NCBI GenBank assembly: GCA_937930695.1
Contig: CALHCB010000029.1
Location: 36,652-100,651, forward strand
Origin: an uncultured Acidimicrobiales bacterium
GTDB taxonomy: Bacteria; Actinomycetota; Acidimicrobiia; Acidimicrobiales; SZUA-35
Length of the DNA stretch: 64,000 bases
Direction of reading: 5' to 3'
Shown: piece by piece, positions 13,850 to 49,480 of the stretch
Numbering within the stretch: position 1 is the first letter of the stretch
Layout: every line of letters begins with the position of its first letter
Translations under genes and position numbers: made by a program
Notes under the pieces: model-generated
Told to the model about the DNA's origin: nothing
The model's input: only the letters and a program-made list of their open reading frames with translations
Databases searched by the model: none

Positions 13850-16402
13850 CTAGAAGCTCGCGTTTGTCTCGACTTGACGCCAGCTCGCAGGAAGCGTGAA
13901 CCGCGCTGCCCCCGCTTGATCGGTGAGCAGATCAACGATCTGCTCCAAGCTCTTGGCCGGGGAGTAGTGCCAACCCTGGATCACGTTGAATCCAAGGCCT
14001 TTCGCCGTTTCCAGTTGTTGCATGGTCTCGACGCCCTCGGCGACGACGCCGAGATCGAGTTCGGCTGCGAGTGCCACGATCGCTTTTGCGATCGAGTGAT
14101 CCGATGACCCGTTTGTGAGATTGGCGATAAAGCTGCGATCGACTTTGACAATGGAGAGCGGCAGGTCACGTAGATGTGCGAGCGATGAATACCCGGTGCC
14201 AAAGTCGTCGAGGGCCAGGCGAATTCCAAGCGCTGAGATCTGATCCAGAGCGGCTAACGCTGGCGGCCCGGCCTCGAATGCTGCGCTTTCAGTTATCTCC
14301 ACGCAGATCGACGTGGGATCGACCCGGTGCTTCTTCATCACTTCGCCGAGCTCTTCTGCGAACCCCGTCTGCAGGATGCTCAGGCCAGAGAAGTTGCACG
14401 CAACCGTGAGACCCGGTGCGAGCGTGTTGAACACCGCTGCGGCTTGGCACGTCAGCTCGAAGGCCTGGCGGTCAAGCTCCCACACGAGCCCTGACCCGGA
14501 CGCGGCATCCACAAAGCCTTCGGGTCCCACGAGGGTGCCGTCGGCTGCGCGGCATCGGGCAAGCGACTCGAATCCGATCAGCTTGTTGTCATCGGCTGAG
14601 ACAAGAGGCTGGAAGTGCATGACAAGGCCGTCTTCGTCGAGAGCTCGGCGCAACATACGTCGCTGGTCTTCGGCGATGCCGACTTCGCGGGCCAACTCTT
14701 CGTCGAAGATCTCGACGCGATTCCGCCCCTTGGCTTTGGCGGAGTACAGCGCGACGTCCGCGGCTCTCAAGAGCGAGTCTTCCTCCAGCTCGGTGGGGCT
14801 CTGGATCGTGAGCCCGATCGATGCAGTCAGCACGAACTCGTGGTCTACGGTGCGGACCGGCCGGGTCAGCCGACGGCGAATTGCATTGGCAACTCGTAAC
14901 GCTTCCTCGGTGCTGGTGGTTTCGAACACAACGACAAACTCGTCGCCGCCGAGACGCACGACGAGGTCTTCGGGCTTGCGGCCCTGAGAGATGAGATCGG
15001 CGACACCGCGAATAACTGCATCGCCGGCGCGATGACCATGTGTGTCGTTGATCACCTTGAAGTTGTCGAGATCGATGAGGCAGCCAGCGATCAGCGTCGC
15101 AGCATCGTCGCTTCGACGATGTTGGCGGCGGAGGCGGCCGAGATGATCGTCGAGTTGTCGGCGATTGGCCAGACCAGTCAGCTGGTCGTGCAACGCCCGA
15201 GTTCGCATCTCGCGTTCGGCGCGACGAGCGGCAGTCACATCGTGCACGCCGATGGATGTGCCGATGGTCTTGTCATCGATTCCGATGACGGGTCTGCCAG
15301 AAAGCTCGAGATTTCGGTATTCGCCGTCAGCAACGACGACGACGTCTTCCTTGGTGATGATGGAGCCGGCAAGAAGGCGACGGATGGGATGACGTTTGCC
15401 TTCCAACAAGCGTGACTCCGCATCGCGGAACGCAATGTCCTCGGGCTTGAGCCCCGCAAGCGGGACGCTGCTGGAGAGTCCGAAAATCTGTCGGGCCGCC
15501 GAGTTCACGACGATGATTGACCCCACTGCGTCGGTGGCGATGATCCCGTCGTGAAGTTGCTCGACCATGGCCTTGGACACTCGCTCGGCGCGCTCCAAGG
15601 TCGATTCGAGTTCGAGGTCGTGGTCGCCGTTTCGGAGGGAGAGGACCATGCCGCCCACCTGGGGATCATTGGTCATGTCGCGGCCGGTGACTTCCAACCG
15701 AACATATTCACCAGCACCATTGAGAACTCGGCCGACGAATCTGTAGACGAGGTCCCGATTGGAGAGACCAACCATCGCCTCCGCAGCAGCATTGACATCT
15801 CCTGGGTGGAGAAGGTCGATGGCGCTTGTCCCGATGAGCTCGACGGGGCTTCTGCCCATTTGAATGGCAACCGCTTGATTGGCGTACCGAATGATCCACT
15901 CGTGGTCCATGACGATGACGGCATCGCGAAGGCTCTCGAGAACGTGGGCTTCCAGTGTCCCGTCACTCGCGCTCTGGTGAGCGACGGATGCGCACATCCT
16001 CGCCAGGCCATGGAAGATGTCAGGTTCCGTCGTACCGATCGGTCCGAAGACAGTCAGCGCACCCGCGGGGTCGCCATGCCGGTCAGAGATGGGAAAACTG
16101 ACGCTCTGCCCGTCGGCCTGATGGCCGGCGGCGCCGTTCATGATGGCGGATTCGGTGGGCGTGTAGGAGCGTGGTTGGAGGAGGTTCGAACCGATCGATC
16201 CGACGACTGATGCCCGGGCATCATCGAACACGATGACTTCAGCTTCTGCGTTCGTCAGACGACCAGCAATCCTGACGACTTCGATGACCGAAGGGTGTCC
16301 GGACAGCAGGGACATCAGGGAGTCCGAATCGCCCCCTCTGGACTTCATGGTGTACTCATCGGCCTGAGCGCCAGAAAGGTGACTGTTCGTCCGATGATTC
16401 AT
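13850..16402 (-). CDS. sensory (GAF-like/PAS-PAS)-GGDEF-EAL c-di-GMP turnover protein
   Basis: 850 aa. GGDEF signature RLGGDEFVV. EAL signatures ESLAR, EITES, DDFGTGYSS, KVDRSF, AEGVET and QGWHYSPA are all intact. Two PAS-like segments lie upstream. Confidence 0.9.
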   Translation of the reverse strand: MNHRTNSHLSGAQADEYTMKSRGGDSDSLMSLLSGHPSVIEVVRIAGRLTNAEAEVIVFDDARASVVGSIGSNLLQPRSYTPTESAIMNGAAGHQADGQSVSFPISDRHGDPAGALTVFGPIGTTEPDIFHGLARMCASVAHQSASDGTLEAHVLESLRDAVIVMDHEWIIRYANQAVAIQMGRSPVELIGTSAIDLLHPGDVNAAAEAMVGLSNRDLVYRFVGRVLNGAGEYVRLEVTGRDMTNDPQVGGMVLSLRNGDHDLELESTLERAERVSKAMVEQLHDGIIATDAVGSIIVVNSAARQIFGLSSSVPLAGLKPEDIAFRDAESRLLEGKRHPIRRLLAGSIITKEDVVVVADGEYRNLELSGRPVIGIDDKTIGTSIGVHDVTAARRAEREMRTRALHDQLTGLANRRQLDDHLGRLRRQHRRSDDAATLIAGCLIDLDNFKVINDTHGHRAGDAVIRGVADLISQGRKPEDLVVRLGGDEFVVVFETTSTEEALRVANAIRRRLTRPVRTVDHEFVLTASIGLTIQSPTELEEDSLLRAADVALYSAKAKGRNRVEIFDEELAREVGIAEDQRRMLRRALDEDGLVMHFQPLVSADDNKLIGFESLARCRAADGTLVGPEGFVDAASGSGLVWELDRQAFELTCQAAAVFNTLAPGLTVACNFSGLSILQTGFAEELGEVMKKHRVDPTSICVEITESAAFEAGPPALAALDQISALGIRLALDDFGTGYSSLAHLRDLPLSIVKVDRSFIANLTNGSSDHSIAKAIVALAAELDLGVVAEGVETMQQLETAKGLGFNVIQGWHYSPAKSLEQIVDLLTDQAGAARFTLPASWRQVETNASF

Positions 16403-16539
16403 TGCAGGAGATCAAGGAGAACGGGGAGGCATCGCGGAAATATGCCGCCCAGCTTGAAGTCATGCGCATGAGGAAGAAGTCGGCAAGAACAGCCGTTTTC
16501 TGAACTCTCAAAACCCAAGGTAGGGGGTCCCGGTTTGCG

Positions 16540-43817: not shown

Positions 43818-44427
43818 ATGGGCTGAAGGTCACCGGCTGGAGTTGTTCGCCGCCGAATCGGGCGATGGCCCCCTGGCCGTCGTGGCCGAGTTGCGGCGAC
43901 TTCCGAACGCTCGCAAGGCGCATGCCCGCGCTGCAGTTCTTGAAGCCGGTAAGGCATCGATCGGGCTGACAGAGACCGATATCCCTGCTCCCACAATCGG
44001 CTGGGAAGTTCGCAGCTCTGGGATATGGGCGGAGTTCGTGTGCGAGACCCCGCTCGACCACTGGAGTTATGGCCTTGAGGCATTTGCTCTCGAAGTCGAT
44101 GGCCCAAGAGATCTGATCGATCTCGGCGTCGGTCATCGAGTCCCCCTCGGATGGGAGCTCGAGTTTGAGGCGGCAGGCCCTGCGACCTGGATCGCTGACG
44201 GGTGCTATATCCAAGCCGGACGTGGACACGGACTGCTGTTGTCTGCGGATGGTGAGCGCGAGATCGAAACGAAGGCTCGTCGTTGGCACTGGTGGGGGAT
44301 CGGGGAACCCTTCGTCGGCGAGTCCGATGGTGCAGGTGAGGGGCTCGCAGAGATCTGGCTGCCCGACCCGACCGAACAGTTCGTCCTGTCCGGCACCGGT
44401 CTGAGCGTTGGACGAGGTCCGTGGTGA
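43765..44427 (+). CDS. hypothetical protein
   Basis: 220 aa from ATG 43765. The stop overlaps the GTG start of the channel gene by 7 nt. No motif recognised. Confidence 0.45.
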   Translation: MEITAQHERWQDPDGQPEWAEGHRLELFAAESGDGPLAVVAELRRLPNARKAHARAAVLEAGKASIGLTETDIPAPTIGWEVRSSGIWAEFVCETPLDHWSYGLEAFALEVDGPRDLIDLGVGHRVPLGWELEFEAAGPATWIADGCYIQAGRGHGLLLSADGEREIETKARRWHWWGIGEPFVGESDGAGEGLAEIWLPDPTEQFVLSGTGLSVGRGPW

Positions 44428-45527
44428 TTGAAGTACTCGCGATCTTCGCCGGCGTGTTGCTCGTCGTCAGCGTCCTGTGCGACATGGTCAACACACTGGT
44501 GTCCACCAACACGTCGTCGTGGAAGTGGTGGCTCTCGCGACGAGTCACGATCTTCACTTGGCGCGTGATCCGCTTCATCGCTCTTCGAATGCCGGACGGG
44601 GCAGTTCGCGAACGCCTGCTCTCCACGTACGCACCCGTGCTCGTGCTCGGACTGTTGATCACGTGGGTGACGCAACAGATCATCGGGTTCGGCTTGATCT
44701 GGTGGGGGCTCGGCAACGTTTCAGGAGTCGAGACACTGGCCGACTCTCTCTACTACTCCGGCGTAGTTTTCTTTACGGTTGGGTTTGGAGAAGTTGTGCC
44801 GTCGGGGACGGTGCCGAGATTCGGTGCGCTCATCGAAGCGTTCTCCGGCGTGCTCACCACGGCCCTCGTTATCGGCTATCTGCCGGCCCTGTACTCCGCC
44901 TACAGCGAGCGTGAACAGAAGATCATGACGCTCGACGATGGCGGCAACGGACGAATCACACCGACGAATCTCGTGATGGCTTGGGCTCCGACCGGCGACC
45001 CCGATGACTTGGTGTCGCGCTTTGCCAGTTGGGAAGACTGGACCGCCAACGTTCTGGAAACCCACACGACGTTTCCGATGCTCCAGCTTTTCCGATCTCA
45101 CCATGCTGGACAGAACTGGATCACCGCACTTGGGCTTGTCTCCGACGCGGCATTGCACTGCGAGTTGATCGTGGGTGCCCGGCGACGAGCCCCCTACTTC
45201 ATGCTGCGCCGCGCCATCCGACTGTTCGGTGAGTTGACCGAGGACGTGGATCTGTCGAGGTATCGGGCGGATTTCGATGCGACCTACGGCTCGAGCGAAC
45301 AGTTTCGTGAGCTCTACGACGCGCTCGAGGCGCATGGATTCGAGCTCATTCCTTTCGAGGAAGGAAGGCTGGCCACACTTGAACTTCGACGTACGTTTGA
45401 CGCACCACTGGAGTACTTGATCGATGCTCGACTCGCGCCCCGAGGTTTCTGGGGTCATGAGGTCGCTACCGCTGCGGCCGGGCTCGCGTCGGCCGACGAC
45501 GCGTCGTTGACCAAGCGAGTTGACTAG
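44421..45527 (+). CDS. potassium-channel family protein with uncharacterised cytosolic C-terminal domain
   Basis: Pore helix and selectivity filter LYYSGVVFFTVGFGEV, flanked by TM helices. About 190 aa of C-terminal region without an RCK/TrkA glycine motif. Confidence 0.75.
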   Translation: MVIEVLAIFAGVLLVVSVLCDMVNTLVSTNTSSWKWWLSRRVTIFTWRVIRFIALRMPDGAVRERLLSTYAPVLVLGLLITWVTQQIIGFGLIWWGLGNVSGVETLADSLYYSGVVFFTVGFGEVVPSGTVPRFGALIEAFSGVLTTALVIGYLPALYSAYSEREQKIMTLDDGGNGRITPTNLVMAWAPTGDPDDLVSRFASWEDWTANVLETHTTFPMLQLFRSHHAGQNWITALGLVSDAALHCELIVGARRRAPYFMLRRAIRLFGELTEDVDLSRYRADFDATYGSSEQFRELYDALEAHGFELIPFEEGRLATLELRRTFDAPLEYLIDARLAPRGFWGHEVATAAAGLASADDASLTKRVD

Positions 45528-46456
45528 GCCGAGATGTCGCTTGGCGCCTGAGCGTTGGTGTGGTCCGGTTTGTCTTCTGCAAATTTGACCACGAGAAGGG
45601 TGAGGGCGGCGGCGACTGCTGCGAGCAGAACACCCGTACCGAGCGCGCTGGCCTCTGGCCACTCAAGGGTCGTGCCGCTGATGACTTCTTCTGCCTCGTC
45701 GCTCACAACCCCAACCCCGTTGGGCCACGGCCAAAGCACACGAATCGATCCGATCATCAAACCAAGAAGTCCCGCAAGCACTGTTTGTTCGTGTCGATCG
45801 AGTAGCCAGTTCAGGAACGACGAGAACAATGCGAGCCCGATGACCGCACCGACGAGAAAGACAGCTAGCTCAACGATTGAGCCGCCAAGAACCGCGGCGT
45901 ACATGCCCATCATCAACATGATGAACGAGCCGGAGACTCCGGGAAGGATCATGGCGCAGATGGCGATGGCGCCAGTGACGAGAAAGAACGGCAGCGCAGG
46001 TTCGAGAATCGCGCCAGCCTGAAAGCCGAGAAGAACAAAGGCGGCGATGGCGACGGCCACAATCGTGGCGAATCGCATGGGATCTCTTGTCGTGATGTTC
46101 TGCCACACGATCACGCAACTCGCGGCGACAAGACCACAGAACACTGCGGCGATGTTCTCTGCTTCTTCCACAAGCAACGTTTCCATCGGGTGACGAAGCA
46201 GTGCAAAGGCGACGATCACGCCCGTTCCAAGCGGGATCAAGAAGAGCCAGTCGATTTCCTTGATGGTGGTGACGCCGCCCGATACGTCGCCGGTGACGAA
46301 CTGCTTGAGGGCGTGGGCACCGGATCGAACGTTGGCAATGAGCCCCTTGTAGATCCCGAAGATGAGGGCGACGGTTCCGCCCGAGACTCCCGGGACGATG
46401 TCCGCTGCTCCCATACAGAAGCCGCGTAGCGCTTGCATGGCGATCCGTTGGATCAT
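45524..46456 (-). CDS. DUF368 family membrane protein (polyprenyl-phosphate transporter PopT-like)
   Basis: GAADIVPGVSGGTVALIFGIY and a second ILPGVSGSFIMLMMG motif. Start ATG 46456 (the track start is 46510). Confidence 0.8.
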   Translation of the reverse strand: MIQRIAMQALRGFCMGAADIVPGVSGGTVALIFGIYKGLIANVRSGAHALKQFVTGDVSGGVTTIKEIDWLFLIPLGTGVIVAFALLRHPMETLLVEEAENIAAVFCGLVAASCVIVWQNITTRDPMRFATIVAVAIAAFVLLGFQAGAILEPALPFFLVTGAIAICAMILPGVSGSFIMLMMGMYAAVLGGSIVELAVFLVGAVIGLALFSSFLNWLLDRHEQTVLAGLLGLMIGSIRVLWPWPNGVGVVSDEAEEVISGTTLEWPEASALGTGVLLAAVAAALTLLVVKFAEDKPDHTNAQAPSDISA

Positions 46457-46564
46457 CGAATCAAGACTCCTGCTTCGGCCGCTCTCGCGAGTTGCTGCTT
46501 CGACATGCAACTCCTGTCGGCACCGTGGCTGCGTGGTTGAGCAGGTGACGTTATCGCGCAGGCC

Positions 46565-47305
46565 CTACGCCCCGACCAGCGGGAAGAGAACCTCAGGCAG
46601 TTGTTGGAAACCCGGTCGGGCAAAGAAGTAGCCCTGGAAGAGTTCGATGCCTTCACCAAAGAGCCAGTCGAATTCAGGTTGTGTTTCCACTCCCTCGGCA
46701 ATGATGTCAATGCCGAGGTCCTCACACGTTCGCTGCACGCCGCGGACGATGGCTTGGCGCGGTCCGCTGGTTTGGATGGCGCTGATCAATTCCCTGTCGA
46801 GCTTGATGGCATCCGGTTGAAACTCGGCGAGCAGATTCAGGCCGGCGTATCCGGCCCCAAAGTCGTCGATGGCGAATTGGACGCCTGCACTTCGCGATTC
46901 ATTCGCGATCGCAACGAAGAGCGAGATGTCGTGAATGATTTCGCTCTCGGTGATTTCTATGGTGATGGCTTCCGCCCCGAGCCGGACGTCCGCGGCAGCG
47001 GCAATGGTCGAGGCGATGGAGTCGGGCGACATCTCGAGCCCTCGCGGCATGAGATTGAGGTTGAGGTGCAGGTCGGTCGGTTGGCCGAGCGTGCTCGCGA
47101 GTCGTATGGCATCTGCTCGAAGCTGCTCATCAACTTCGTAGATGAAGGGTGCCTCGAGGGGCTCGAGAACCGAGAACGCCGATTCGCCATTTGGGCCGCG
47201 AACAAGTGCTTCTTGGGACACGATGAGGGCGCGGCGGATATCGACAATGGGTTGGAATGCAAAGCTGTAGGCCAACGCTCGAGGGTCGTTCTGACGCTCG
47301 ATCAC
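46565..47305 (-). CDS. stand-alone EAL domain c-di-GMP phosphodiesterase (catalytic signature intact)
   Basis: QEALVR, LNLNL, EITES, DDFGAGYAG, KLDREL, AEGVET and FQGYFFARP are all present. The GTG start overlaps the upstream TGA (GTGA at 47302-47305). Confidence 0.85.
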   Translation of the reverse strand: MIERQNDPRALAYSFAFQPIVDIRRALIVSQEALVRGPNGESAFSVLEPLEAPFIYEVDEQLRADAIRLASTLGQPTDLHLNLNLMPRGLEMSPDSIASTIAAAADVRLGAEAITIEITESEIIHDISLFVAIANESRSAGVQFAIDDFGAGYAGLNLLAEFQPDAIKLDRELISAIQTSGPRQAIVRGVQRTCEDLGIDIIAEGVETQPEFDWLFGEGIELFQGYFFARPGFQQLPEVLFPLVGA

Positions 47306-48513
47306 GTGAGTTCCCGAGCGGGAATGAACACTTCTGACGCCAACTGTTCGAATTGGGGTTCAGCGAACAACGCACCCTGGAAGAGGTGGACTCCTTCGCT
47401 GCGGAACCAATCGACCTCGGCCTGGTCTCGGATTTGCTTCGCCACGACGTCGATGCCGAGGTCCTCCGCGGTCTGCAAGATGCCTCTGACGATGGCTTGA
47501 CGCGCCCCGTTCGTCTCGATGTGTCGGACGAGACCCTCATTGAGGGCTACGCCGTCCGGCTTGTACGTATCGATCAGGTAGTGGCCGGATCTTCCAGCAC
47601 CGAAGTTGTCGATGGAGATTCGCATGCCAAATGCCCGCTGTTGTTGGAGCACTGAGGCAAACCATTGCGGATCGTCGAGCAGCTGGTCATGGTCGAGTTC
47701 GAGCGTGAGACGGTCGGGACGAAAGCCGTACCGTTCTGCTGCATCGACGGTGGCCTGCATTGTTCGTTCGGCGTCGTCGCAGCGATACACCGCGTAGTTC
47801 AATGTCAGCCCGGTGGAAAGGCCGAGTCGCGCCGCGAGGCCCATCGCCATCGTGTGGGATTCCATTTGTAGCTGGGTCCGGGCTGCTGGATCGTCGCGTT
47901 GGACGGTCGTTGGCAGTTTGGTTGTCTTGTCGAGCTCGATGGCTTCATGGGAAGTCACCCGCTCATCATCCAAGTCGATGATCGGCTGGAACGCATACGA
48001 CACCGGAGGTCGCTCGGTCGGGAGCGAATTCGTTGGTTGGGGACTAGAGACCGATGGCTGATCGTCAATGGGTTGGGTAGCGACCCGAGATCTCCACCGA
48101 CCGCTGTTGAAGGCTTTGAGCAGCTTCTTTGTCCGCCCAGGATTGAGATCGTCGAAGCAGCCTTGACCTTGGAAGAAATCGTTCAGACCGTCAATCGAGG
48201 CCAGTTCTTCTGCGGACACCTGGGCATAGCCCATGCTCCAGTCACTGAAGTCCCGGCGGGGGATAGGTTCGCGGATGATCGTGACGACGCTGGTGTGACG
48301 GTCATCGCGAGCGATGTGCTCAAAGAGAGCGTCGACGGCATCCCCGTCGCCTTCGAGCACCTGGAGAAAGCTGCCCTCCACGAAGAGAAGCATGCCGGTG
48401 ATGTCGAGCGAAGCGTTCTTCTCTCGGGCCAGCGCAAGGAGAGCGACGAGGTCCTTTGACGACATCTCCCTTGTTGCTGCGCTGCTATAGATCAAATGGA
48501 CAAGCCCGGACAT
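47302..48513 (-). CDS. BLUF photoreceptor domain fused to a degenerate EAL domain
   Basis: BLUF signatures: LIYSS (Tyr), FLQVLEG (Gln), DWSMGY (Trp/Met). EAL-like domain with substitutions: EAIEL, ELDH, DNFGAGRSG, ALNEG, AKQIR. Confidence 0.85.
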   Translation of the reverse strand: MSGLVHLIYSSAATREMSSKDLVALLALAREKNASLDITGMLLFVEGSFLQVLEGDGDAVDALFEHIARDDRHTSVVTIIREPIPRRDFSDWSMGYAQVSAEELASIDGLNDFFQGQGCFDDLNPGRTKKLLKAFNSGRWRSRVATQPIDDQPSVSSPQPTNSLPTERPPVSYAFQPIIDLDDERVTSHEAIELDKTTKLPTTVQRDDPAARTQLQMESHTMAMGLAARLGLSTGLTLNYAVYRCDDAERTMQATVDAAERYGFRPDRLTLELDHDQLLDDPQWFASVLQQQRAFGMRISIDNFGAGRSGHYLIDTYKPDGVALNEGLVRHIETNGARQAIVRGILQTAEDLGIDVVAKQIRDQAEVDWFRSEGVHLFQGALFAEPQFEQLASEVFIPARELT

Positions 48514-48635
48514 GCGGTCAGCTCCTGATTCGGTGGAGTGTGGACATGTCAGCCCACGAAGCTTGTTTCGGCGCGCCCGGAGAAGTTCTTGAGGGTTCTT
48601 CCAGGTGCATGTCGAAGCAAAGCTGGCGTGGGACG

Positions 48636-48674
48636 CGAAACGGGCCCCCGGTTGTTTCCCGAGGGCCCGTTTCG
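48636..48674 (-). terminator. GC-rich hairpin downstream of sdhB (terminator candidate without U-tract)
   Basis: cgaaacgggccc (48636-48647) pairs perfectly with gggcccgtttcg (48663-48674). Three more pairs form inside, leaving a 7-nt loop. Confidence 0.4.
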
Positions 48675-48706
48675 AAGATTGAGATGGTGCTGGGTACGCG
48701 GCGTCG

Positions 48707-49480
48707 CTATCGCTGCCCGGCGAGCTTGCGGTTGGTTCGCTTCGACTTGATGTAGTCGCGGTTCATGTACGCGATGAAATCGATGCTGATTTCCTTGGGG
48801 CACGCTTCGGAGCACTCACCGTGGTTGGTGCAGCTTCCGAAGAACTGTTCCATGGTCTCCACCATTTCTTCGGTCCGCTTGTAACGCTCAGGCTGGCCCT
48901 GAGGCAGCGAGTTCAGATGCCAAAGCTTCGCCGAGGTGAAGAGCTGACCTGCTGAGTTCGGGCAGGCTGCGACACAGGCTCCACAGCCGATGCAGGCCGC
49001 AGCGTCCATGGCTGAATCGGCTGCCTCTTTCGGGATGGGCGTGTCGTTCGCATCGCCCGCTGTTCCGGTGGGAGCGGTGATGAATCCGCCTGCTTCGATG
49101 ATGGCATCGAGCGGGGAACGATCGACCACGAGGTCTTTGACGACGGGGAACGCTGCTGCTCGCCACGGTTCGATGGCGATGGTGTCGCCGTCGGAGAACT
49201 TCCGCATATGCAGCTGGCAGGTCGCAGTGCCTTTTTCTTGGCCGTGGGCTCGGCCATTGATCATGACGCCACACGTTCCGCAAATGCCTTCGCGGCAGTC
49301 GTGCGGGAACTCGATGGGAACGTTGCCCTGCTCGATGAGACCCTCGTTGACAACGTCGAGCATCTCGAGGAAGGAGGCATCATCTGGGATGTTGCGTGCT
49401 TCGTAGGTTTCGAAGCGACCCGGAGCAGTCGGCCCATCTTGGCGCCAAATCTGCAGGGTGAGGTTGAGGTGGTTGCTCAC
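48707..49480 (-). CDS. sdhB: succinate dehydrogenase iron-sulfur subunit
   Basis: Cluster motifs CREGICGTCG, CIGCGACVAACP and CTNHGECSEACP. Confidence 0.95.
   Translation of the reverse strand: MSNHLNLTLQIWRQDGPTAPGRFETYEARNIPDDASFLEMLDVVNEGLIEQGNVPIEFPHDCREGICGTCGVMINGRAHGQEKGTATCQLHMRKFSDGDTIAIEPWRAAAFPVVKDLVVDRSPLDAIIEAGGFITAPTGTAGDANDTPIPKEAADSAMDAAACIGCGACVAACPNSAGQLFTSAKLWHLNSLPQGQPERYKRTEEMVETMEQFFGSCTNHGECSEACPKEISIDFIAYMNRDYIKSKRTNRKLAGQR

Follow-up and report, generated by a model that had tools for sequence, protein, structure and literature searches.

Blue-light sensing by BLUF domains has been linked to EAL domains, the phosphodiesterase domains that degrade cyclic di-GMP (c-di-GMP), in several described arrangements. 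BlrP1 of Klebsiella pneumoniae carries both domains in one chain and forms an antiparallel dimer in which the BLUF domain and capping helices of each protomer lie against its partner's EAL domain and influence it via the compound helix (PMC8846402; Winkler et al. 2014). PapB, a short BLUF protein of Rhodopseudomonas palustris, regulates a separate EAL enzyme, PapA, in a complex described as a heterotetramer, and the C-terminal helices of the BLUF protein have been implicated in this regulation (PMC8846402). BluF (YcgF) of Escherichia coli is a degenerate EAL domain fused to BLUF, and degenerate BluF homologues have been reported usually to adjoin a BluR-like gene (Tschowri et al. 2012). Here we describe a gene pair in a 64-kb stretch of DNA, hereafter the window, from an uncultured Acidimicrobiales bacterium (contig CALHCB010000029.1 of assembly GCA_937930695.1). 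Its first gene, A, encodes a BLUF photoreceptor with a degenerate EAL domain, and its second gene, B, encodes an EAL domain alone with all motifs intact. An EAL-only gene stands directly downstream of the degenerate photoreceptor gene in every lineage in which we could look, and we propose that A probably regulates B within a heteromer of an EAL and a pseudo-EAL protein, a reading that draws on the geometry of BlrP1, on a conserved BLUF output motif and on class-specific changes at the dimer interface.

The division of the catalytic residues between the two proteins is clear-cut. An earlier note, made from the letters of this DNA alone, had held that the EAL domain of A lost most of its catalytic and metal-binding positions while the downstream gene encodes only an EAL domain and keeps every motif, and both statements are borne out. 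Scored over 14 signature positions (E-A-L-x-R, N, E-x-x-E, D-D, K-x-D, E-G-V-E and Q), protein B reads EALRNEEDDKDEEQ, the canonical signature and identical to the BlrP1 pattern, and Pfam finds in it an EAL domain alone (E 2.5e-45). Protein A reads EAILNEHDNANKRQ. All five motif changes listed in the earlier note are present: against B, EALVR has become EAIEL, EITES has become ELDHD, DDFGAG has become DNFGAG, KLD has become ALN and AEGVET has become AKQIRD. The seven-residue catalytic core, E-N-E-D-D-K-E when complete, is E-N-E-D-N-A-K in A, with Asn in place of the second Asp of DDFG, Ala and Asn in place of the Lys and Asp of KxD, and Lys in place of the Glu of EGVE. The lost residues are those that form the second metal site and hold the hydrolytic water in place, roles that Lys323 and Asp302/303 fill in BlrP1, and mutagenesis of RocR and TBD1265 (Rao 2008 and Tchigvintsev 2010, as cited by Tschowri et al. 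2012) reportedly showed such residues to be needed for EAL catalysis. Without its second metal site and catalytic Lys, A is not expected to hydrolyze c-di-GMP, and we regard its EAL domain, judged by its residues, as catalytically inactive. The motifs of B mark it as the predicted c-di-GMP phosphodiesterase of the pair. Among solved structures, B comes closest to the stand-alone EAL protein of Vibrio cholerae (6ifq, E 6.7e-51) and to BlrP1 (1.2e-48), and A comes closest to BlrP1 (3gfx, E 5e-46, residues 4-392).

This combination of a dead and an intact EAL domain is widespread and strictly organized. A protein search with A listed 120 relatives, every one of them a BLUF+EAL protein; in these, the seven core catalytic positions are fully intact in 30 and degenerate in 90, none of the degenerate proteins keeps the KxD Lys, and nearly all carry Lys or Arg for the EGVE Glu. 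For genomic context, we combined degenerate-class members recovered by exact look-up with 80 metagenome loci found with the family alignment and classified every locus with hidden Markov models (HMMs) built from the family. Three architectures emerged. Among loci that extend at least 800 nt downstream, 7 distinct ones (L044, L046, L048, L049, L053, L059 and L060) carry an intact BLUF-EAL fusion with no other EAL gene nearby. Degenerate BLUF-EAL fusions followed by a same-strand EAL-only gene occur in 20 distinct lineages with enough downstream sequence (the window, L028, L032, L035, L036, L038-L040, L042, L043, L045, L050-L052, L067, L121, L122, L124, L127 and L128). The third architecture is split, with a BLUF gene of about 150 aa followed by an intact EAL-only gene; at about 50 of the fetched loci, among them Rubrivivax and Azohydromonas genomes (L001-L005), these are the most numerous relatives. 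An EAL-only gene thus lies directly downstream in 20/20 lineages of the degenerate class versus 0/7 intact fusions (Fisher p = 1.1e-6), so the survey of related genomes that the earlier note had suggested finds the two genes as neighbors throughout. The partner has the canonical signature in 17 of the 20 lineages; in L067 EAL reads EVL, and in L121 and L122 catalytic residues are substituted. The stop codon of A and the start codon of B overlap by 4 nt (ATGA or GTGA) in 9 of the 20 and by 10 nt in one, and a gap of 2-40 nt separates them in the others.

By source label, the paired architecture is found in Sphaerotilus (Betaproteobacteria), Ca. Thiodiazotropha (Gammaproteobacteria), Thioclava (Alphaproteobacteria) and Nodosilinea (Cyanobacteria), in addition to the Acidimicrobiia window studied here, and the protein search adds degenerate-class proteins labeled Spirulina (Cyanobacteria) and Schlesneria (Planctomycetota). 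At least 90 clusters at 90% identity contain BLUF proteins with this type of dead EAL domain. A scan of genome contigs with the single protein returned distant relatives only, which were either the split short-BLUF and EAL loci L001-L005 or unrelated EAL proteins. What surrounds the pair is variable: in an all-against-all comparison of 18 pair loci, A and B are the sole conserved families, and the other clusters are shadow open reading frames (ORFs) opposite A or B.

A few of the short-BLUF and related loci have layouts of their own. At L069 (2626-3833), a 143-aa BLUF ORF and an overlapping EAL ORF form a split layout, yet the EAL domain nests inside the intact fused clade, as though a fused gene had undergone recent fission or been broken by a frameshift or assembly error. 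Two short BLUF genes stand in tandem ahead of the EAL gene at L066 (1328-2679). L091 (281-1386) has two BLUF ORFs and no EAL, and L085, L089 and L093 carry near-identical 152-aa BLUF genes with no adjacent EAL gene within 0.6-4 kb of downstream sequence, so some short BLUF relatives are unpaired. At L098 (3092-3957), the EAL gene beside a short BLUF gene is split into two ORFs, either a frameshift pseudogene or a sequencing error.

The neighborhoods also bear on a BluF-like reading, in which A would be a light-dependent anti-repressor or regulator of a non-EAL target elsewhere and B would merely be co-expressed. Such a role has a precedent in E. coli BluF, a degenerate BLUF-EAL protein that works through protein-protein contact alone, and JGI names some members of the family "blue light- and temperature-responsive anti-repressor". 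The BluF partner, however, is the MerR-like repressor BluR encoded next door, and tblastn with the BluR sequence of E. coli detected no homolog in the window as a whole or in 17 pair loci (best E 0.46). Nor do the flanking genes, which are unconserved among 18 pair loci, point to a ycgZ-ymgAB-like target unit. By distance, BluF is closest to BlrP1 (0.95), and the degenerate clade is remote from it (mean 1.74). Its losses also fall elsewhere than those of the clade of A: the KxD Lys is retained, Met takes the place of the EGVE Glu, and Phe that of the compound-helix Tyr (Y308 of BlrP1). Since the BluF-like reading would in addition leave the 20/20 linkage to an EAL gene unexplained, we give it only a slim chance. 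The family of A is a large exception to the generalization that places BluR-like genes beside degenerate BluF homologs, and it represents an independent loss of catalysis.

The sensor half of A has the expected features of a BLUF domain. The BLUF profile (PF04940) is matched at positions 1-92 of 92 (E 3.5e-30), and BLUF structures in the PDB match A at 1e-13. The earlier note had called the BLUF signature intact, and the photocycle residues Tyr9, Gln51, Trp92 and Met94 are indeed all present. Across 121 family sequences, Gln51, Trp92 and Met94 never vary, and Tyr9 occurs in 120, the remaining one having a gap at this position; Asn33 is likewise invariant (alignment A3). A can be expected to bind flavin and to be photochemically competent. 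Behind the BLUF core, residues 109-141 of A contain the motif G-x-N-D-F-F ... G-R-T-K-K-L-L-K-A-F-N-S-G-R-W-R. This capping-helix and linker motif is invariant or nearly so in alignments A1 and A3, with the family form G-R-A-K-K-L-L-x-A-F-x-x-G-R-W-R (or, more loosely, GRxKKLLxAFxxGRWR), and it is conserved equally in the degenerate fused, the intact fused and the split short-BLUF and EAL classes. That the motif is conserved despite the dead EAL domain implies that the output surface of A is still under constraint. A tree of BLUF domains did not resolve the classes, with 0% support for any of them.

The dead EAL domain has a history of its own. In a neighbor-joining tree of 174 EAL domains (corrected p-distances, 200 bootstraps), the degenerate domains form one clade, old and separate, with 93.5% bootstrap support; in 51% of replicates its sister is the intact fused clade. 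The EAL domains of A and B are 34% identical (E 8e-40) and contain the common strings quoted in the earlier note, so its description of the two as paralogs stands. The paralogy is not that of a recent or local duplication: the two EAL clades are sisters in 0 of 200 bootstrap trees, and tandem duplication as the origin of the pair is rejected. Significant EAL matches in Pfam for both proteins (for A, residues 171-386, E 4e-32) might suggest that A and B are simply two ordinary active phosphodiesterases whose adjacency reflects a duplicated gene. This is very improbable, given that the two domains are never sisters, that A has lost three residues reported as required for catalysis (the second Asp of DDFG, the Lys of KxD and the Glu of EGVE), and that degeneracy correlates perfectly with the presence of the partner.

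The dead domain evolves faster than its relatives, with a mean outgroup distance of 1.63 versus 1.19-1.21 for the partner and intact fused classes, and it is nonetheless under purifying selection: in moderately diverged pairs, the ratio of nonsynonymous to synonymous substitution rates is 0.09-0.33 for the dead EAL domain, 0.07-0.39 for BLUF and 0.08-0.32 for B. Pairwise distances of A and B are correlated over 14 pairs (r = 0.76, Mantel p = 2e-4). The fold is also predicted to be full-length and intact. In an AlphaFold2 model of A (mean predicted local distance difference test score, pLDDT, 83.3; predicted template modeling score 0.77), the BLUF domain and the EAL barrel are confident, with block-mean pLDDT mostly 84-98 in the barrel; the helices at 111-122 and 127-136 have low confidence in the monomer, and residues 143-165 are disordered. 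The modeled barrel superposes on the stand-alone V. cholerae EAL structure 6ij2 with a root-mean-square deviation (rmsd) of 2.1 Å. BlrP1 is the top full-length Foldseek match of the model (E 3e-31), and the placement of the domains in the monomer model differs from that in 3gfx (rmsd 20 Å).

What has changed in the dead domain is specific. We defined class-specific positions as those at which the partner, intact fused and split classes agree to at least 85% and the degenerate class differs. At the active site, the KxD Lys is Ala or Ser in 90% of the degenerate class and Lys in none, the KxD Asp is Asn or Ser, the EGVE Glu is Lys or Arg (98%) and the Gly after it is His or Tyr, the second Glu of ExxE is Gln or His, and the second Asp of DDFG is His or Asn, but Asp is kept in a quarter of members. 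Changes of the same regularity occur in the compound helix, which forms the center of the EAL dimer interface in BlrP1. Here the Tyr corresponding to BlrP1 Y308 is Arg in 77% and His in 17% of the degenerate class (94% together), the position of BlrP1 T315 is Glu or Asp in 99%, and the acidic residue that follows the T315 position in active classes is lost, whereas the partner and all active classes keep Tyr at the Y308 position and Ala at the T315 position. Protein A follows this pattern, with Arg (residue 308, within FGAGRSG) at the Tyr position and a new Asp (Asp315) at the T315 position. The dimer-interface helix is thus consistently remodeled, not decayed.

Taken together, A and B would constitute an autonomous unit, inherited as a whole, through which blue light controls the breakdown of c-di-GMP by two polypeptides. 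The suggestion of the earlier note that a light-sensing regulatory subunit controls an active phosphodiesterase by heterodimerization is thereby supported in part. Tight or overlapping translation would allow the two proteins to be made together, favoring equimolar synthesis, and to assemble into a heteromer, for which the most likely geometry would be a BlrP1-like antiparallel dimer of EAL and pseudo-EAL domains. EAL enzymes need a dimer partner for a competent metal site and activity, and the dead EAL domain of A could serve as the dimerization and allosteric scaffold that the enzyme requires without adding unregulated activity of its own. In a BlrP1-like arrangement, the one BLUF domain present, that of A, would rest against B, which has the only active site, and the protomer that would have no BLUF neighbor would be the one that is inactivated. 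A light-induced change could then pass through the compound helix and the dimer interface to the metal site of B and raise its activity; activation by light, as in BlrP1 and PapB-PapA, is the expected sign of regulation by analogy with these systems. The Arg or His of A, which would face the Tyr of its partner, could favor heterodimers over homodimers. A BlrP1-like dimer of A and B would explain the strict tie of degeneracy to the presence of a partner, the retention of the dead domain and the selection on it, the conserved output motif, the remodeled compound helix, and the tight or overlapping translation of the two genes. In its most specific form, which we advance tentatively and hold to be somewhat less than an even bet, the proposal is that these pairs are a widespread, obligate pseudoenzyme-enzyme EAL heterodimer, in which a symmetric BlrP1-like dimer has been subfunctionalized into one protomer with the sensor and the dead scaffold and another with the active site, so that one BLUF domain controls one active site in trans and the Arg/His and acidic residues of the compound helix enforce heterodimerization.

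Several observations weigh against the heteromer proposal. The deep nodes of the EAL tree are weakly supported, and the distance correlation between A and B is also expected from plain co-inheritance without contact. When B is compared with other active EAL domains, just 2 positions are partner-specific, hence there is no reciprocal signature at its interface to match the remodeling in A. The degenerate class also retains several substrate contacts, namely the Gln of FQPI, the Glu of EAL, the Gln of QG and, mostly, the Asn. Finally, in the partners of two divergent, alphaproteobacterial-type lineages, L121 (Thioclava sp. FR2, CP195191; 5185-5907) and L122 (5188-5907), Gln replaces the first Glu of ExxE (QITESE), and in that of L121 Ser also replaces the metal-binding Asn, so that B may be a weak or inactive enzyme in this branch. 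A gene for a PAS_7-HisKA-HATPase-REC hybrid kinase follows the pair in both L121 and L122, where the module possibly works differently.

The near absence of class-specific residues in B would be expected if B were a homodimer on which the BLUF domain and capping helices of A dock in the manner of PapB, giving a heterotetramer, as PapB-PapA is described, and leaving the dead EAL domain to serve self-association, stability or localization. Such docking would also fit the sharing of the capping-helix motif by all classes and the abundance of the split short-BLUF and EAL loci, which, with about 50 fetched, are the most numerous relatives and form no separate clade in the EAL tree. It would, however, leave unexplained both the purifying selection on a 230-residue dead domain and its class-specific remodeling at precisely the compound helix of the dimer interface, and we regard docking of this kind as unlikely.

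The retained substrate contacts raise another possibility. Inactive EAL domains often serve as c-di-GMP sensors, and the dead domain of A could be a receptor similar to LapD or FimX, with A integrating light and c-di-GMP for some other target and B setting the local pool. Gln176 and Glu190 are kept in at least 90% of the degenerate class and Gln379 is invariant, and it is mainly the catalytic Lys and the residues of the second metal site that are lost, all of which would suit a domain that binds c-di-GMP without cleaving it. Against a receptor role, about 40% of members have Trp or Cys in place of the EALxR Arg, protein A has Leu at this position, and the 18 pair loci hold no conserved third gene that could be the target; we consider it quite improbable. 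The heteromer in which A regulates B is the reading that we prefer to both of these.

The coordinates of the pair and of the features within and around it are given in Table 1.

Table 1. Features of the BLUF-EAL and EAL-only gene pair and its surroundings in the window
Feature	Position (nt)	Strand	Basis
Gene A: BLUF photoreceptor with catalytically degenerate EAL domain, 403 aa, ATG start	47302..48513	(-)	ORF, Pfam
Gene B: EAL-only protein, 246 aa, catalytic, metal-binding and substrate-binding motifs all intact	46565..47305	(-)	ORF, Pfam
GTGA overlap of the TGA stop of A and the GTG start of B	47302..47305	(-)	Sequence
BLUF domain of A, aa 4-95, with Tyr9, Gln51, Trp92, Met94 and Asn33	48229..48504	(-)	Pfam PF04940
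BLUF C-terminal capping-helix and linker motif of A, aa 109-141, presumed output surface	48091..48189	(-)	Alignments
Degenerate EAL domain of A, aa 171-399	47317..48003	(-)	Signature EAILNEHDNANKRQ, class-specific residues, model
AGGAG, Shine-Dalgarno-like, 8 nt 5' of the ATG of A	48522..48526	(-)	Direct reading of the sequence
15-bp perfect G+C-rich hairpin right after the sdhB stop codon	48637..48673	(-)	RNA folding

The two ORFs lie where the earlier note put them, the GTGA overlap is as stated there, and on the strength of these 4 nt we infer that the translation of A and B is coupled; an alternative TTG start of B lies about 30 nt downstream of the GTG. Upstream of A, on the same strand, are sdhA and sdhB; the SdhA protein is 81-87% identical to proteins labeled as Acidimicrobiales, Acidimicrobiia or Actinomycetota MAGs, which places the host among uncultured Acidimicrobiia. 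The region 48600-48710(-), which covers the hairpin behind sdhB, folds with -47.8 kcal/mol over 111 nt (z = -4.3 versus shuffles) in a window of 61.1% G+C. A consensus scan of 46300-48900 for promoters and terminators returned nothing, the sdhB hairpin having escaped it for want of a U-tract. This hairpin is likely a factor-independent terminator of the sdh operon that parts the sdh genes from the A-B pair, which probably has a transcript of its own. A search of the whole window against Rfam at the gathering threshold gave no match and hence no c-di-GMP riboswitch.

Downstream of the pair lies a gene for a VCA0040-like membrane protein resembling undecaprenyl-phosphate translocases (45524-46510 (-)). 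The TTG at 46510 that is listed as its start probably lies too far upstream, there being an ATG preceded by AGGAG near 46456, and its Pfam domain starts only at residue 33 of the listed ORF. Converging with it, with a 4-nt overlap of the ends, is a gene for a K+-channel-like protein (44421-45527 (+); Ion_trans_2, E 9e-9). Another EAL domain was found with the family HMM (E 8.5e-19) at residues ~598-819 of a long ORF of about 850 aa (13850-16411 (-)), probably a multidomain c-di-GMP protein, so that the genome would have more genes for c-di-GMP turnover than the pair. An exact-sequence look-up places protein A in a 90%-identity cluster with YqaE/Pmp3 membrane proteins of 48-52 aa from Anaerolineae, which we take to be a database artifact.

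Members of this family are currently annotated as "diguanylate phosphodiesterase" or "anti-repressor", and the strict pairing implies that neither label is right for the sensor protein, just as it contradicts the generalization in the literature that links degenerate BLUF-EAL proteins to a BluR-like repressor. If the heteromer model is true, the three architectures (fused active, split BLUF and EAL, and fused dead with EAL) would provide a series in which to study how EAL dimer interfaces transmit signals and to ask why pseudo-EAL domains persist, and the pair would offer optogenetics a blue-light phosphodiesterase that is split by nature, and possibly low in background, with which to control c-di-GMP. 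A family that comprises 90 or more clusters from several phyla and follows so clean a rule makes the pair a worthwhile target for experiments.

How far this module departs from known systems depends on which of them it is compared with. The earlier note had set it apart from two characterized paradigms, and that distinction holds, since the active EAL domain lies outside the photoreceptor chain, unlike in BlrP1, and no BluR was found in the window or in 17 pair loci, unlike for BluF; the note overlooked PapB-PapA as a third. Like BlrP1, which is its best full-length structural match, A has the order BLUF-EAL. The EAL domain of BlrP1 is itself active within a symmetric dimer, whereas sensing and activity are here divided between two genes, and BlrP1 is without the GRxKKLL..GRWR form of the capping motif that A has. 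With BluF, A shares the fusion of BLUF to a degenerate EAL domain. As in LapD and FimX, the EAL fold of A is kept without catalysis, and the dimerization region of such receptors is re-used for signaling; unlike A, neither of these two proteins is a photoreceptor or forms a pair with an active EAL paralog. We found no description of an operon of BLUF-degenerate-EAL and EAL-only genes in the searchable literature, which omits most subscription papers. The ingredients (BLUF, EAL, pseudo-EAL and, in PapB-PapA, regulation in trans) are all known, and it is their combination in two proteins that is apparently undescribed. The closest functional precedent is PapB-PapA, in which, as here, the BLUF protein and the EAL-only enzyme are separate polypeptides, encoded in our case by adjacent genes, and whose split layout is abundant among the sister loci that have the capping-helix motif of A. 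PapB, by its description, has no other identifiable domain, whereas A has a conserved dead EAL domain of about 230 residues with a remodeled interface helix.

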